Source of the DNA: a phage | Direction: 5' to 3' (one strand) | Length of the DNA: 64,000 nucleotides | Assembly (NCBI GenBank): GCA_011835815.1 | Contig: GCA_011835815.1_3615.1 | Part shown: positions 6,735 to 51,119 of the stretch, in pieces | Position numbering within the stretch: position 1 is the first letter of the stretch | How the letters are laid out: every line of letters starts with the position of its first letter | Notes under the pieces: model-generated | What the model saw: only the letters and a program-made list of their open reading frames with translations | Databases searched by the model: none | Told to the model about the DNA's origin: nothing | Made by a program: the position numbers and the translations under genes

Positions 6735-7154
6735 ATGAACATTAAATCTAATAATCCGGCATATAGCTTTGATAACGCTTTTTGTCACGGTCCGGCGGCG
6801 AAAGGTTTTGAAATTGATGGTAAACTAATTATTGTCAATGTTGACGGGGAAGAGGTTGCAGTATATCCGGTGGCAGACGTAAAAAGCCGTTTGCAATGCC
6901 GCATGGATGTTACCGCCTATCAGCTTGATCCGGTCCGCATAGTTGCCCTGGTCCTGGAAGAAGAAATTAAAGCCATGCACCATAGCAACAGGTTTATTGG
7001 TGACGCACAGGATAATATGAAGGTATGCCGCCATAAAGTTAATGAAGTGCTTAAAGAATATGGCTTTAAAGATCTGATGATCAAACGTGAGGAAAAATTC
7101 CGCTACCGTAACGACCTGGCAAATCGAATCTATGAAATATACGAATCATTATAA
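6735..7154 (+). CDS. hypothetical early protein
   Basis: 139-aa ORF with AGAGG SD; promoter upstream, terminator downstream; last + strand gene before the gene desert. Confidence 0.55.
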   Translation: MNIKSNNPAYSFDNAFCHGPAAKGFEIDGKLIIVNVDGEEVAVYPVADVKSRLQCRMDVTAYQLDPVRIVALVLEEEIKAMHHSNRFIGDAQDNMKVCRHKVNEVLKEYGFKDLMIKREEKFRYRNDLANRIYEIYESL

Positions 7155-7172: not shown

Positions 7173-7202
7173 AGGGGCTTTAAAAGGCCCCTTTCTTTTT
7201 GT
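7173..7202 (+). terminator. rho-independent terminator
   Basis: AGGGGCTTT-AA-AAGGCCCCT hairpin then T-run. Confidence 0.65.
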
Positions 7203-7810
7203 CTGTATTTCTCCTACCACAAACGGCCCAGCCTGGCAAGTGGAATAATTGACTAGCCATCAATCCCACACACTGTACAAACATACATGTAAAATAACTA
7301 TTGCATAATTTTTCATTGTGTGGTAGCAGGTCCATTTTTACCCGTTTTCTCTCTCAAAATTGCACGTAATGCCGCTATTGCACAAAATTTAACCTGATGC
7401 ACATCTTCAATATCTTGTCAACAACTAAAAATCTTTATAAGTCATACACTTACACACTCACAAAAGCGTGTTCTACGTGAAAAATCGAGTATAACTATAG
7501 CCGCCAGATCTCAGAATTTACGTACGCTCACCATTCTATAGTCTGCTAAGTATTTATTCCAACCATGGAATAACGGAATAGTCAATACCTGCATAAAATA
7601 ATTATTCGTGTAAACTGCATAACATAAATCAGCTTATGTGTCAACATTCTTGGTAAACAGTCCGAAATTGTAACGGTAAGTTATAATAAACAGAGAAATC
7701 TTTAGTCGTCTAATGTTTACTGTACATAACTATACTGACTGGAATCATTAGATGACTAAGAGAAAGATAAGAAATAATTAACAATACAATTATTTTATCT
7801 GTAACAATAA

Positions 7811-7984
7811 GGCAACTATGCAAACGAATGGCATGGCGCGACGGAGTCGCGACATAATATAAAAGCAGTAACCATCACCCCCGTGATAGTTTGTCTGCAA
7901 TCTATTAATCAGATCATAGTTGCCTTGTATTCAGTTAATCATGACATAATAAGCAAGGCAACTATAGATCTGCTAATAGTTGCC
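7811..7984. repeat. four copies of GGCAACTAT in alternating orientation, including a perfect 12-bp inverted repeat
   Basis: Copies near 7811(+), 7916(-), 7957(+), 7976(-); ATAGTTGCCTTG...CAAGGCAACTAT arms; also a 19-bp direct repeat TGCAAACGAATG(G/T)CATGGC at about 7819 and 8047. Confidence 0.6.
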
Positions 7985-8075
7985 CTGCTTTTATATTATG
8001 TCATATATTATTAACTTGTTAATTGTTAACTTGCTAATTGTTTTCATGCAAACGAATGTCATGGCTTATCCTATC

Positions 8076-8147
8076 TGTGTAAACAGTTAAGGTGTAAACT
8101 ATCCAGGCGTAAACAGTCTATGCGGGAACAATCTATACGTGAACAGT
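8076..8147. repeat. three copies of GT(A/G)AACAGT at roughly 31-bp spacing
   Basis: GTAAACAGT near 8076 and 8108, GTGAACAGT near 8139; a related GTAAACTA between. Confidence 0.45.
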
Positions 8148-8759
8148 GAAACATGAAATAATAACAGTCGTTATTGTGTCGAAAGTGTATAAGGTGTCAG
8201 ACAAGTTTTTCTCCTCTTTGTCAAGTGCTGCATGAAAAATTTACAATCTGGTATGGTAGCATTTTTGCGGCCCGGTTTACATTCAGTTGTGTATGTATAA
8301 CCCTTGTTGTGTGGGCGTTTAGACGTCTGGACGGTCAGAAGTCCGCAGGTTAATATCTAATCTATTGGCTGCTAACTATATCCCACACAAATAGTAAGAA
8401 ATATAATTGTTATGTGCGTAAACGGTAACTCATGTTATCAATCCCTGTATGTATCGCCAGTGGTGCGCATAATAGGTATTATGTTAAATTGCCAGTAATG
8501 ATAACTATTCTCACAATGATAGGTATTCTCATTCACTCCCACAAGATAGGTTGCAAATGTTGTGCCACTGTGTGAACGGCCTCACCTATTAATTTGCCTC
8601 ACTGCCTCGATATTTGAGAATTGTTATAAGAATGAGAAGTATTCCCATTTCGTCCGCCTGGCAGCACTCCAGTCGCTACCGGCTCCTGACAGGGAGGCAC
8701 TCCTGTTGGTCAGGTCAAAATCGGGGTAGAACTGGGCCTGTTCAGATATTTCTGGCTGA

Positions 8760-9947
8760 CTCTTCAGGTCTGTGTGGGAAAAGCCAACCTCTCCGGCGGC
8801 GGGGAGGGGGTCAATTAAAAAATTTACGGGGTATATGAAGCGCTCTTCAGGTAAGGCATGTACTATGGGATGAGACCCTCTTCAGGCAATGATATTTGTG
8901 GGTGTGATATTTGCTGGAAAGCCAGATATGACGGGACTCCCGGCGGGGCAGGGGTAGTACAGACAGGGAAAATATGGGGATGTAGTTGGGTGAATTGATC
9001 GGGCAGGTAGAGTATGGAATATGTTACAAGTATGTTAAATATGGAGGGTGAATATCTGCAGGATTTGTGTGTAAAATCAAAGACTTAAGTAGTGTTGTGG
9101 TATTTTCTATAAATAATTCAAGTTTAATAGGTAATATTTGTCTCTATCCACTTTGTGTGGTAAACAAATTCAAATGAGATTGGTTTACAAGTGTATACAT
9201 AATATACAAATTAAAGATACAAGAAACCCCCCTCCCCCTTCGGCTACCATTCACCTTTTCCTCTGACTGGTACTTAAACACTTATTCAGACTCTTCAGGT
9301 TATCACCCATATACCATATGGCAGTGACTGGTGTCCTCCGGCCCCTCTTTCGTCACCCGTCCGCTTCGCCATGCTAATGCCATAGCTAATGGTTCGGTTG
9401 TTCACCCTGTTCACTCAGGTGTATCTCTATACCCCTTCAAACCGAAGAGAACAGAAAACCCGAATTACTCGGTAAAAGAAAAGAGAAGAACTTAATTTTA
9501 TCAGGATAGGCAAGAATGTCAAGGCATGACTGCTCACTAAACAAGCAAACAGTCATGTGTGGGAGGTAAGTGATTGTGGTGGTAGGAAATTTAGTTGAAA
9601 GATGTGTTATAGGTGCTTCCAGCACTTTAGCCTGGCAGCTAATTGTGTGTCAGTCCAGCGGTTCATCCTCTACTTCACTGAAATCAATGTTCATGGTCTC
9701 TTCCCAACCATCGATCTCAGCACAAGAGTGGAGTTCTTTAGGGTTTACTCCCAAAGCCTCAGCAACAGAGTCTATATTTAACACCCCTGGCAGGTATGAT
9801 TCATCGAATTCAAGGTAAATCAGGCCACGAGTGTTGTCAGCTCCACCAAATATCTCTATCTTCATAAAATCTCCTCTGGGAATGAAAGTGTGAACAGGGT
9901 TTTATACGTTCTAATGCACAGGAATTATACACGTTTGCCTCTTCAGG
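8760..9947. repeat. dispersed 9-mer CTCTTCAGG (5 copies)
   Basis: Exact copies near 8760, 8843, 8877, 9291 and 9939, all same orientation, all in non-coding DNA. Confidence 0.5.
9650..9865 (-). CDS. small highly acidic protein
   Basis: 71 aa, rich in D/E; most promoter-distal gene of the - strand block. Confidence 0.5.
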   Translation of the reverse strand: MKIEIFGGADNTRGLIYLEFDESYLPGVLNIDSVAEALGVNPKELHSCAEIDGWEETMNIDFSEVEDEPLD

Positions 9948-9986
9948 CCATGCTTTAGCATGAGGAACCTGTGTGGGCTCGGTGCT

Positions 9987-10199
9987 TCATAGTCTACCAC
10001 CTCTGAACTCTTCGTGCTCAGGCATAATAGAGAACCAGATATCTACGATGTCCTCCCACGTCAGGTCATCAGCCTCAGGATCTGTCTGGGACGAAGATGA
10101 AGAGTCCTCAGAATCTAAGTTTTCCTCTTTAACTGGCTCATCCAAGGGACATATGGCCACTCCTTCGGATGTCTCTTCAGATGCATGTGTGTTGATCAT
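9987..10199 (-). CDS. small highly acidic, Ser-rich protein
   Basis: 70 aa, D/E/S-rich; stop of upstream small ORF overlaps its start. Confidence 0.5.
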   Translation of the reverse strand: MINTHASEETSEGVAICPLDEPVKEENLDSEDSSSSSQTDPEADDLTWEDIVDIWFSIMPEHEEFRGGRL

Positions 10200-10297
10200 G
10201 TTCCACCCGTGAGTATTCCGGCAACAGCCGCTATGGAAGTAATGATCATCAGGATCACCACTAAAACTTCAGACAATGTTCTCATTGTGTATTCCAT
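10196..10297 (-). CDS. small hydrophobic peptide (33 aa)
   Basis: Hand-translated MEYTMRTLSEVLVVILMIITSIAAVAGILTGGT; GGAGA SD; ATGA overlap with downstream gene. Confidence 0.35.
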   Translation of the reverse strand: MEYTMRTLSEVLVVILMIITSIAAVAGILTGGT

Positions 10298-10559
10298 ATT
10301 CTCCAAACTGTGTGTGGATACTATCACGGTAGCGGTAATGTGTCAACAGCAACGCCGCGAGGGTTTGGTTAAAATCCGAGCGTATGGTGATTTGGGTCAA
10401 AACGGACGTGCGTTCTCGCTACGCTCGAAAAAGAGAGTTGTTTGTAGGAAGCTCTTAAACGCTCTGTAAGGAGATTATCTGTCCAAGGTATGCAATCGTG
10501 CACCAGATAAAGAAAAGGACGCCACAGAGCGTCCTAGGTGTCTTAAATTTGATATTTTG

Positions 10560-25398: not shown

Positions 25399-27522
25399 TC
25401 AGCAACCACAACTTCCGTAGTGCTTAACCCGTTCTATAACTTCCGCTTGCTTACCTTTATTGTAAGGACGGGAGTTTGGACTAGACAGGTACCCGGATAC
25501 ACGTCTGATCACACTGATCGTTCCCTCTTCATGGTTTCCACACTCTGGGCATACAAAGCCTTTAGCTGTTGCACTAAACTCACCAGAGAAACCACACTTG
25601 AGACATTTATCCACAGGTTGGTTAATACCAAAATACATAATGTGTTTATACCCGAAGTCAACAAGAGCCTCTAAAGCATCCAGGTTGTTTTTCAGATTTG
25701 GTGTCTCTACGTATCCGATGTTGCCACCAGAGGAGATCATAGCAAAACCTTCTTCATACTTCCACTTATCAAAAGGAGAGCTATTGATCCATACTGGCTG
25801 ATGGAAACTGTTGGTGAGATATTCATGCTCGTGCTTCAACACTTCAGGATATTCACGATCCAGACAGGTTGCAGCTTTATAGCATAGGCTCTCAGAAGGG
25901 GTGCCGTACAAGCTAAATGCTAGTCTACTTTCCTTCTTGTATCGCTCACAAGCATCTCTCATGTGCTGAAGGATTCCAAGAGCTAAAGCCTTGTCACCCT
26001 CTCTGCCCAAAATCTGACAGGTTTCATACACACCAATATACCCAATACTGATGGAAGCGTACCCGTCATAGAAGAGTTTATCAATACTCTCTTCAGGATC
26101 CAGGCGAGCAAGAGCGCCTTCACACCACATGATAGGGTTCTGCCCTGCCTTGGTGCCTTTCAGACGGTTAACCCTTACAAGGTGAGCCTCGTATGCAAGA
26201 TCCAGATACTCGTCAAGAACGGCAAAGAAATCAACACCTTCCGTCTTAGCTTTTGCCGCAATCATTGGCAGGTTAAGACTAACAACACCCAAGTTGAATC
26301 TGCCTAGGTATTTCTCCTCGCCTGTTTCCAAGTCATTGTATTTGCTAAGAAAACTCCGGCAACCCATGCTCGTTACTTTACCATCTGTCGAGCCTGTCAC
26401 TTTACGATTTAGTGGAACAGAAACAAAGTCAGGATAAATCCGCTCTGCAGAGCATTCCAGAGCTAATCGTTTCAAATCATAGTTAGGATCTCCAGGGTTC
26501 ATGTTGACACCCTCTTCTAGGAAGAACAGCACTTTAGGGAACACAGGTGTGATACGTTCTTCACCAAGACCCATTTTGTGGACTTTCAAGTAATTTTTGG
26601 TAATCATTCTACCAAAGACCGAGGTATCCAGTCCTAAACTTAATGTGATGAATGGAGTTTGCCCGTTGACAGAAGTTAACGTATTGATTTGATAGAGCAA
26701 AGTCTGCATGCTGTCAAATACGTCTTTATCTGTCATTTGCATTGCAACAGTCTCAGCATCTGGCAACCAATGTTCCTGGCAAAATTTAAGGTTCTTCTCA
26801 TAGGTCGCTTCAGCATACTGTGCCAGATAATGATCAATATGGCTCATAGTCTGACCACCATATTGAGCACTAGCTACTGCACTAGAGATTTGGCTAAGGA
26901 TTGTTGTTGCAACCCCTATTGACTTCGGCTTACTGACATGGGCGTTACCAATGTTGAATCCGTTTTCCAACATATCTGGATAATTTACCAAACAACAGTT
27001 TGTTAACGGACTGATCAAGTAGTCAAGATCATGCACATGGATGAAGCCTCTATTGTGCTCTTCTGAGACACGGTCTGGCAGGATCTGTGTTGATGCAAGG
27101 TGTTTGCTAAGGATGCCTGCAAGCAGGTCACGATGAGTGTGTACATGATTGGTAGGCTTATTTGCGTTTTCTTTTGTAAATTCATCACAAGTGCGATCCA
27201 AGAAGCCACTAATATCTGCAAGCAGTTTTCCACCTGCCTCTCTATTATTATCTCTTGTCTGCCTATACTGGATGTATTCTCTGGCTGCACATTTTAAACC
27301 CATATCCATAAGAGCGTCTTCAACAAGGATATGGATATTTTTTACAGAGATCGTGCACTGGTCGGTTGGTAGAGTGTTAGCAACAACTTCATTAACCGCG
27401 CAGGCGATCCGGTAAGCTTCTTCTTCAGTATGTCCAGACTCAAGTAAGGCGGACTCTGCCGCCTTGATCACCTTAATTCCGTTATATACCTCTTCTCTAC
27501 CGTCCCGTTTTACAACTTTCAC
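25399..27522 (-). CDS. nrdD: anaerobic (class III) ribonucleoside-triphosphate reductase
   Basis: 707 aa; C-terminal glycyl-radical region (RRVSGYL) and C-terminal Cys-rich motif CLKCG...CPECG. Confidence 0.85.
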   Translation of the reverse strand: MKVVKRDGREEVYNGIKVIKAAESALLESGHTEEEAYRIACAVNEVVANTLPTDQCTISVKNIHILVEDALMDMGLKCAAREYIQYRQTRDNNREAGGKLLADISGFLDRTCDEFTKENANKPTNHVHTHRDLLAGILSKHLASTQILPDRVSEEHNRGFIHVHDLDYLISPLTNCCLVNYPDMLENGFNIGNAHVSKPKSIGVATTILSQISSAVASAQYGGQTMSHIDHYLAQYAEATYEKNLKFCQEHWLPDAETVAMQMTDKDVFDSMQTLLYQINTLTSVNGQTPFITLSLGLDTSVFGRMITKNYLKVHKMGLGEERITPVFPKVLFFLEEGVNMNPGDPNYDLKRLALECSAERIYPDFVSVPLNRKVTGSTDGKVTSMGCRSFLSKYNDLETGEEKYLGRFNLGVVSLNLPMIAAKAKTEGVDFFAVLDEYLDLAYEAHLVRVNRLKGTKAGQNPIMWCEGALARLDPEESIDKLFYDGYASISIGYIGVYETCQILGREGDKALALGILQHMRDACERYKKESRLAFSLYGTPSESLCYKAATCLDREYPEVLKHEHEYLTNSFHQPVWINSSPFDKWKYEEGFAMISSGGNIGYVETPNLKNNLDALEALVDFGYKHIMYFGINQPVDKCLKCGFSGEFSATAKGFVCPECGNHEEGTISVIRRVSGYLSSPNSRPYNKGKQAEVIERVKHYGSCGC

Positions 27523-51020: not shown

Positions 51021-51119
51021 GCTAGGTAAGCCCTTTGGCAAGGGCGAGGATTTTTAATCCTGAAAATAGACGAGGTAGTCGTTGAATACATAGGTGGTTC
51101 GATTCCATCGCCTAGCACC
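51021..51119 (+). tRNA. atypical tRNA-like gene (about 97 nt), anticodon possibly UUU (Lys)
   Basis: Perfect acceptor GCTAGGT/GCCTAGC, D-arm GCCC-TTTGGCAA-GGGC, anticodon-like hairpin GAGGA-TTTTTAA-TCCTG, canonical T-arm; but about 30 nt inserted between anticodon stem and T-stem. Confidence 0.4.

Follow-up and report, generated by a model that had tools for sequence, protein, structure and literature searches.

Short oriented repeats and a dif-like site at the genome junction of rV5-like Escherichia coli phages

The stretch of DNA analysed here, 64,000 nucleotides of contig GCA_011835815.1_3615.1 (NCBI GenBank assembly GCA_011835815.1; hereafter the window), is, judging from its sequence, that of an Escherichia coli phage of the genus Vequintavirus (rV5-like): the region under study matches 122 phage records at 90-99% identity, all of them Vequintavirus, i.e. 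rV5-like myoviruses of ~137 kb. Beside the terminal repeat of the virion DNA, this genome carries five copies of the 9-mer CTCTTCAGG (hereafter the motif), all on the same strand, together with an equally oriented partner, GATATTT[TG]. These are two short oriented elements, selectively maintained and specific to the genome junction. By analogy with other phages, they may be recognition repeats for the genome-end maturation and packaging machinery, a reading that we favour tentatively and with less than even confidence. We regard the motif as a cis-acting repeat at a phage genome end, a new instance of an already known kind.

The genes to the left of the cluster are on the + strand and those to the right on the - strand, the cluster itself lying in a gap of ~2.5 kb between these convergent units. 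The rV5 genome paper draws this gap as a 'non-coding' box, in which the expected terminators were not found (PMC3606486). Four of the clustered copies are in the gap so drawn, while the fifth is between two small - strand genes. A preliminary description of the sequence had reported five exact copies of the motif in non-coding DNA, all in the same orientation, and a search of the window recovered the five of them on the + strand, between 8760 and 9947; four are where it had placed them, whereas the third starts at 8878 instead of 8877 (Table 1). It had also confined the motif to non-coding DNA, which holds for the cluster but not for the window as a whole, since three more exact + strand matches, at 26089, 32723 and 33590, are inside - strand genes. 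Each of the three reads in frame as CCT-GAA-GAG (Pro-Glu-Glu). Moreover, one-mismatch variants of the motif track the antisense strand of the local genes and switch strand with gene direction, a bias that is an effect of codon composition. The three distal copies are therefore most simply coding coincidences and were ruled out as members of the same system.

As a whole, the window holds eight copies of the motif vs. 0.54 expected (standard deviation 0.73; none of 100 dinucleotide shuffles reached eight), an enrichment that chance does not account for, and the composition of the gap itself would predict only 0.005-0.014 copies there. The complete rV5 genome (137,947 bp) has nine, five in the cluster and four in coding sequence, and the motif is its sole 9-mer reaching five copies per 1.3-kb span, the runners-up reaching three. 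Successive copies are separated by 83, 35, 413 and 648 bp. The flanks had been described as different, and the 9-mer is indeed all that the five copies have in common; pairs of copies nevertheless share strings of 12-15 bp, namely GACTCTTCAGGT for copies 1 and 4, CCTCTTCAGGCnATG for copies 3 and 5, and ATGAnnCnCTCTTCAGGnAA for copies 2 and 3. A search for an accompanying element brought up GATATTT[TGC] at 8609, 8745, 8891 and 8906, always on the + strand, the form GATATTT[TG] being even more widely conserved than the motif.

The ends of the virion DNA could be placed with the help of two phage records. In that of phage Gotham a terminal repeat of 459 bp is given, and the end of the record aligns with position 8200 of the window (PMC7471380). 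EdH4, an independent isolate, has 459 identical bases at both record ends, mapping to the window from 8658 down to 8200; the terminal redundancies of EdH4 and HdK5 are given as 458-bp in the corresponding paper (PMC6563267). From these ends, the terminal repeat corresponds to window positions 8200-8658. With the boundary marked by a slash, its left edge reads GTGTCA/GACAAG and its right edge TCGTCCGCC/TGGCAG, also given as TCGTCCGCC/TGGCAGCAC. All the clustered copies point away from the repeat, into the genome, and no motif was found to the left of it, even when one mismatch was allowed. Copies 1 to 3 and a decayed copy are within 150 bp, in one polarity, whereas ~630 and ~1280 bp separate the boundary from copies 4 and 5, respectively. 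The repeat also contains a dif-like XerC/XerD site, which is considered below.

Conservation within the genus was analysed on an alignment of 13 relatives, in which the differing cells were counted per column set. In the 45 motif columns, 3 of the 576 cells differ (0.5%), vs. 6.4% in the flanking ±40 bp and 7.0% over the whole non-coding stretch (local permutation P ~0.012). As for the four GATATTT partners, not one of their 364 cells differs. The 9-mer itself is under purifying selection. Variation within the region is highest from the repeat boundary to copy 1, a segment with 25.7% of differing cells and indels, whose length ranges from 66 to 151 bp; copies 1 and 2 are 81-150 bp apart, while the distance from copy 2 to copy 3 is constantly 35 bp where both are exact. 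Outside the genus, a BLAST search with the region returned only Vequintavirus at ≥90% identity, the non-coding DNA being unalignable elsewhere.

The comparison was extended to other genera by anchors other than the motif: seven regions were taken from the matches of a 48-nt query around the dif-like site, and those of A7_1 and LTH01 were found through the flanking 139-aa gene, giving ten lineages in total (besides Vequintavirus: Av-05; GAP31, SSE121 and 4MG; PcCB7V; VLCpiM5b; ChuuTotoro; A7_1 and LTH01). Counts were made from the dif-like site to the first gene in seven non-Vequintavirus lineages. The pattern C-N-CTT[CT]AG[GA] had 16 occurrences on the + strand against a single one on the - strand (0.24 expected from shuffles) and is present in all seven, while GATATTT was found 18 times on the + strand and never on the - strand (0.36 expected). 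With the exact 9-mer set a priori and up to one mismatch, ~15 matches were counted on the + strand and one on the - strand of the non-coding stretches, against a hand estimate of ~0.5. When shared k-mers were ranked without any prior pattern over eight lineages, GATATTTT came first (7/8) and ATATTTTG next (6/8), followed at 5/8 by CTCTTCAG, TCTTCAGG, GGGGAGGG, GATATTTG and GTAAAGAT as well as the 8-mers of the motif; in the shuffled null, the maximum averaged 3.2 and never exceeded 5, so that GATATTTT and the motif 8-mers are at or above it.

The order of the elements is kept across genera: dif-like site, GATATTT, GTCCG(Y)CT, motif and GC-rich inverted repeat, the GTCCG(Y)CT element coinciding in the window with the mapped repeat boundary. 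The extended form of copy 1, GGCTGACTCTTCAGGTC..TGTGTGG, is common to GAP31 and VLCpiM5b, and a + strand G-run comes after the motif in five of the seven other lineages. In 4MG and GAP31 the motif is fused to its partner as C(C/T)CTTCAG-GATATTTT, and the fusion of the decayed copy with a partner at 8738-8751 of the window is the positional counterpart of the form fused in this way at +297 in Seunavirus phages. Copy number varies from one to five between genera. The motif is ancient and conserved across the subfamily with strict polarity; the phAPEC8-like phages, which share the flanking 139-aa gene, have neither motif nor dif-like site.

These comparisons bear on a further possibility, that local duplications in a fast-evolving spacer left the copies behind as relics without function. 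Copies 1 and 3 do belong to a degenerate, gapped duplication (motif, GATATTT-TGG, AAAGCCA, CTCCGGCGGGGCAGGGG; z = 5.1), and 16 of 20 bases are the same in copies 2 and 3. The 9-mer is, however, conserved roughly tenfold better than the duplicated flanks, and recurs with the same polarity in lineages where no flank can be aligned, which makes this origin very improbable. The preliminary view of a short oriented recognition-type motif, rather than a by-product of long duplications, is borne out by the same two observations, the same-strand version being found in the seven unalignable lineages.

Every fixed-end phage needs a recognition signal for the maturation and packaging of its ends, and we know of no such signal in the Vequintavirinae. 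Terminase recognition sites typically consist of several short oriented repeats beside the cut, as in the R sites of lambda cosB, with cosQ across cosN, the pacL/pacR boxes of SPP1 and the pac hexamers of P1; in T7, arrays of short repeats are beside the terminal repetition. In the window, 102 bp separate the right boundary of the terminal repeat from the first motif copy outside it, and a partner is ~50 bp inside. A nicking or processing site, one of the functions first envisaged for the motif, is made more plausible by a cluster that begins at this distance from the mapped boundary. The packaging reading is preferred because the elements lie on either side of the mapped cut, have a polarity, as does packaging, would supply an end signal that all fixed-end phages require, and take the form that terminase recognition sites have elsewhere. 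A terminase small subunit, or an accessory DNA-binding protein, would bind the oriented sites at the concatemer junction; this binding would give the packaging motor both its site and its direction, and would position the cut at the edge of the repeat or halt it there. As for the distant copies 4 and 5, they would be auxiliary or take part in another process.

The likeness with lambda cos (cosQ-cosN-cosB, R1-R3), SPP1 pacL/pacR and P1 pac lies in short polar repeats at tens to a few hundred bp from the site where ends are made, and in the use of distinct elements to either side of the cut, GATATTT being inside the boundary in this phage and the motif beyond it. Unlike those phages, with their cohesive or headful ends, the present one has a 459-bp direct terminal repeat, two of its copies are more than 600 bp away and the spacing to the cut ranges from 66 to 151 bp. 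T7 resembles the present one as a phage with a short direct terminal repeat adjoined by short repeats (SRL and SRR) and with an orientation-dependent junction signal for maturation. Its arrays are nevertheless dense, tandem, heptamer-based and present on both sides, whereas here the copies are dispersed and on one side only, the left flank holding different repeats. T7 also relies on an RNA polymerase of its own. In rV5-like phages no such enzyme is encoded (PMC3606486, PMC7344957).

Several points weigh against the packaging reading. The assignment is made from position and analogy, and position by itself does not single out packaging, since the region also has features of an origin and of a recombination site. 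The distances of copies 4 and 5 from the boundary are beyond one terminase footprint (~100-200 bp for a protein complex of this kind), and copy 5 is between genes. Both the spacing from the boundary to copy 1 and the copy number are variable, which disfavours a strict nuclease-positioning geometry. Finally, the degenerate pattern used for the cross-genus counts was refined after the data had been seen.

Another role first proposed, that of a promoter element, is not supported. The copies have no consistent -35/-10 geometry, and the region being between convergent transcription units, no protein gene is downstream in the orientation of the motif. Neither motif nor GATATTT recurs upstream of genes elsewhere in the genome. 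A general promoter or a MotA-box-like middle-promoter element was rejected for the same lack of geometry and of recurrence. A narrower version would have GATATTT act as a -10 element, sometimes TG-extended, for short non-coding RNAs, with the motif as an adjacent regulator, pause or roadblock at the end of the convergent units. GATATT matches TATAAT at four of six positions, including A2 and T6; a TG is upstream of some copies (TGTGATATT at 8903, and TGATATTTT three times in VLCpiM5b); several lineages have a GC-rich inverted repeat 30-80 bp downstream; and copy 5, read on the - strand, has TATAAT 9 nt downstream, ahead of a 71-aa gene. T7 provides a precedent: DNA maturation there requires a short oriented signal, at the concatemer junction, on which the polymerase pauses. 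Motif and partner do not keep a consistent order, though, the partner being before copy 1 and after copy 3; a consensus scan gave no good sigma-70 site on the motif copies, both elements are absent from other intergenic regions, the GC-rich hairpins mostly lack a T-run, and neither an Rfam family nor a folding signal was detected. As a whole, local transcription signals appear rather improbable.

The motif copies have no consistent hairpin context. A structured or small RNA was likewise rejected: Rfam gave nothing, the folding z values were insignificant, and the motif, which is in a hairpin loop in GAP31, is not in one in the window. In the nearly invariant block around copy 4, folding of either strand was no better than that of shuffles (z from -1.1 to +1.0) and Rfam had no match at E ≤ 1. 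This block (1.6% of differing cells) is less variable than the neighbouring gene (3.8%). It carries a strong sigma-70-like site on the - strand, TTGACA-16-TAAAAT, TG-extended, at 9522-9495, followed by a small hairpin with a T-run at 9472-9460.

The repeats could also be the iterons of a replication origin, to which an initiator would bind while the adjacent AT-rich tract unwinds. Several classes of short oriented repeats in a large gene-free region, directly beside such a tract (9040-9209), would suit this arrangement, as in the origins of phages and plasmids. Classical iterons are 17-22 bp long and regularly spaced, whereas the unit here is 9 bp and the spacing irregular. The AT-rich tract is poorly conserved (8% of differing cells) and no initiator was recognised nearby, Pfam giving nothing on the flanking small proteins. 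The cumulative GC skew does turn at this region, and the rV5 authors, who sought an origin, noted the change at the locus, although by their account it coincides with the switch in transcription direction (PMC3606486). We therefore consider an origin unlikely, if somewhat less so than the transcriptional alternative.

Concerning the dif-like site, its sequence is GGTGCGCATAA-TAGGTA-TTATGTTAAAT. Comparison with E. coli dif (GGTGCGCATAA-TGTATA-TTATGTTAAAT, a string verified in the published literature) shows that both 11-bp arms are identical and that only the 6-bp centre differs; ~3e-8 such two-arm sites are expected per genome. By sequence, it thus has the make-up of an XerCD dif-type core site, i.e. 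an 11-bp XerC arm, a centre of 6-8 bp and an 11-bp XerD arm. The arms are invariant in the 13 relatives while the centre varies. In all ten Vequintavirinae lineages, which infect six host genera, the site occupies this convergent gap and keeps one orientation, with a perfect XerD arm, an XerC arm with 0-2 mismatches and a 6-bp centre free to vary. Such a pattern is what would be expected of a recombinase-binding site, for which the site is a candidate. A second, isolated XerD-arm-like half-site, GTATGTTAAAT, was seen at 9030-9040 (10/11 bases), with no XerC arm beside it.

The closest known counterparts of the site are E. coli dif, plasmid cer and psi, Xer-exploiting mobile elements and, for cyclisation, Cre-lox of P1. 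It has the two arms of dif around a 6-bp centre; unlike host dif, it has a central region of its own. Located in the terminal repeat, it would occur as two direct sites per virion DNA, as lox does in the terminally redundant P1, so that cyclisation by XerCD is possible in principle. Its sequence suggests Xer-mediated cyclisation or resolution of the phage genome. Integration at host dif was rejected, no match having been found in 5,426 complete E. coli genomes, which hold no integrated copy of the phage site. Its carrier is a large virulent myovirus rather than a filamentous or temperate element, and the rV5 annotation has no recombinase. The literature searched, one part of which was poorly targeted, had nothing on this site in these phages, on the motif or on their transcriptomes. 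Located as it is in the terminal repeat of a subfamily of virulent phages, such a site is more surprising than the motif, and may matter more.

Given the distance of 270 bp between this site and the motif array, the motif might assist recombination by host XerCD, alone or together with FtsK, as an accessory or architectural site, e.g. in cyclising the injected genome. Site and motif are conserved together, in order and orientation, in the ten lineages; GGGNAGGG, the KOPS (FtsK-orienting polar sequence) consensus, is enriched here (three of eight occurrences in the window and three of 17 in rV5); and plasmid cer and psi use ~150-180 bp of accessory sequence. Known Xer accessory sequences flank the XerC arm, their ligands being PepA and either ArgR or ArcA, whereas the motifs are on the XerD-arm side, at least 270 bp away, and no ARG-box-like palindrome was noticed by eye, without a formal scan; the cer/psi arrangement is thus not the one seen here. 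Dif-type sites with a 6-bp centre, as in this phage, need no accessory DNA. The G-runs closest to the dif-like site are directed away from it and show poor conservation within the genus, with 31.7% of differing cells at 8801. Such an accessory role is distinctly unlikely.

A broader proposal, which we consider rather doubtful, would unite these elements, the gene-free junction being a previously unrecognised genome-end module of the Vequintavirinae. A virulent 137-kb phage would borrow the XerCD of its host, and the dif-like site in both copies of the repeat would cyclise the injected linear DNA, as in P1 Cre-lox, or resolve replication products. The oriented CTCTTCAGG and GATATTT would then be architectural or loading sites through which this reaction, or its hand-over to packaging, acquires a direction and does not depend on the host septum.

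Phages of the rV5 type are isolated widely and find use in phage therapy and biocontrol. Their 2.5-kb gene-free junction, so far drawn merely as a 'non-coding' box, is an organised cis-acting hub conserved across the subfamily, with its mapped terminal repeat, two oriented motifs and candidate host-type dif site. If the motifs are a packaging signal, they would define what has to be kept in engineering or rebooting such phages, as well as the sequences capable of driving transduction. Use of the dif-like site, if it occurs, would mean that a virulent phage exploits a chromosome-maintenance enzyme of its host in a new manner.

Table 1. Elements of the genome junction, in window coordinates (cells: positions of the alignment with 13 relatives)
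Feature	Coordinates	Strand	Remarks
Direct terminal repeat of virion DNA, 459 bp	8200-8658		Gotham; EdH4 (identical ends); PMC7471380, PMC6563267
dif-like site GGTGCGCATAA-TAGGTA-TTATGTTAAAT	8462-8489	+	Inside terminal repeat
Partner GATATTTG	8609-8616	+	Inside terminal repeat, ~50 bp from right boundary; 0/91 cells differ
Decayed motif fused to partner (CTGTTCAG-ATATTT)	8738-8751	+	Decayed copy reads CTGTTCAGA at 8738
Motif copy 1 (CTCTTCAGG)	8760-8768	+	Exact match; invariant in 13 relatives; 102 bp past right boundary of terminal repeat
GGGGAGGG in GC-rich inverted repeat	8801-8808	+	Variable within genus (31.7% of cells differ)
Motif copy 2	8843-8851	+	Sole copy with two single-genome variants
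Motif copy 3	8878-8886	+	Followed by two GATATTTG partners
Two partners GATATTTG, at 8891 and 8906	8891-8913	+	0/91 cells differ in each
GGGCAGGG, second copy	8946-8953		
AT-rich tract	9040-9209		Between motif-rich segment and invariant block; 8% of cells differ
Nearly invariant non-coding block	9210-9560		1.6% of cells differ; holds copy 4
CCCTNCCC	9230-9237		
Motif copy 4	9291-9299	+	Within nearly invariant block 9210-9560
Motif copy 5	9939-9947	+	Between two small - strand genes

Both edges of the terminal repeat are adjoined by hypervariable, indel-rich patches (8000-8199 and 8659-8759), with 25.7% of differing cells in the right one vs. 5.6% in the repeat itself. To the left, the AT-rich, gene-free kb from 7200 to 8199 has repeats of its own, GTAAACAGT being found three times and ATAGTTGCC/GGCAACTAT several times, in addition to a perfect 18-bp inverted repeat (7851-7868 and 7985-8002). 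From the same kb, GCTAATAGTTGC recurs in GAP31, albeit on the right-hand side of the dif-like site. The + strand genes have a clean terminator at ~7174-7200. The 139-aa gene bordering the gap (6735-7154) has ~90% amino-acid identity with that of phAPEC8-like phages, members of another subfamily (Stephanstirmvirinae), in which it is also near the record ends; this sharing suggests an exchange of a terminal module.

Several other candidates were discarded. A hidden small protein in the region is at odds with the non-triplet indels among relatives, and annotators disagree on the tiny open reading frames; the 'FtsK' label given to the neighbouring 87-aa gene in one record is unsupported by Pfam. 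Other resemblances were likewise dropped as unsupported, namely those to the lambda/rrn boxA (CGCTCTT, copy 2 only), Chi and matS, to a sigma-54 -24/-12 element at CCTGGCAGC, to DnaA boxes (TGTGGG-type runs, one mismatch at best) and to the EarI/Eco57I sites embedded in the motif.

Nineteen entries bear the name 'Campylobacter phage', several of them being flagged UNVERIFIED; they are 91-97% identical to window positions 8200-10400 and are probably mislabelled or contaminant Vequintavirus genomes. Elsewhere in the window, ARAGORN predicted a 99-nt tRNA with a four-base anticodon (atcc) at 51021-51119, in a tRNA cluster, roughly where rV5 has a low-scoring tRNA-Tyr. A second clustered 9-mer family, CCCGCCAGG/ACCTGGCGGGG, was found outside the window, at 116517-116828 of rV5, with three copies in ~300 bp and one more in the terminal gap.

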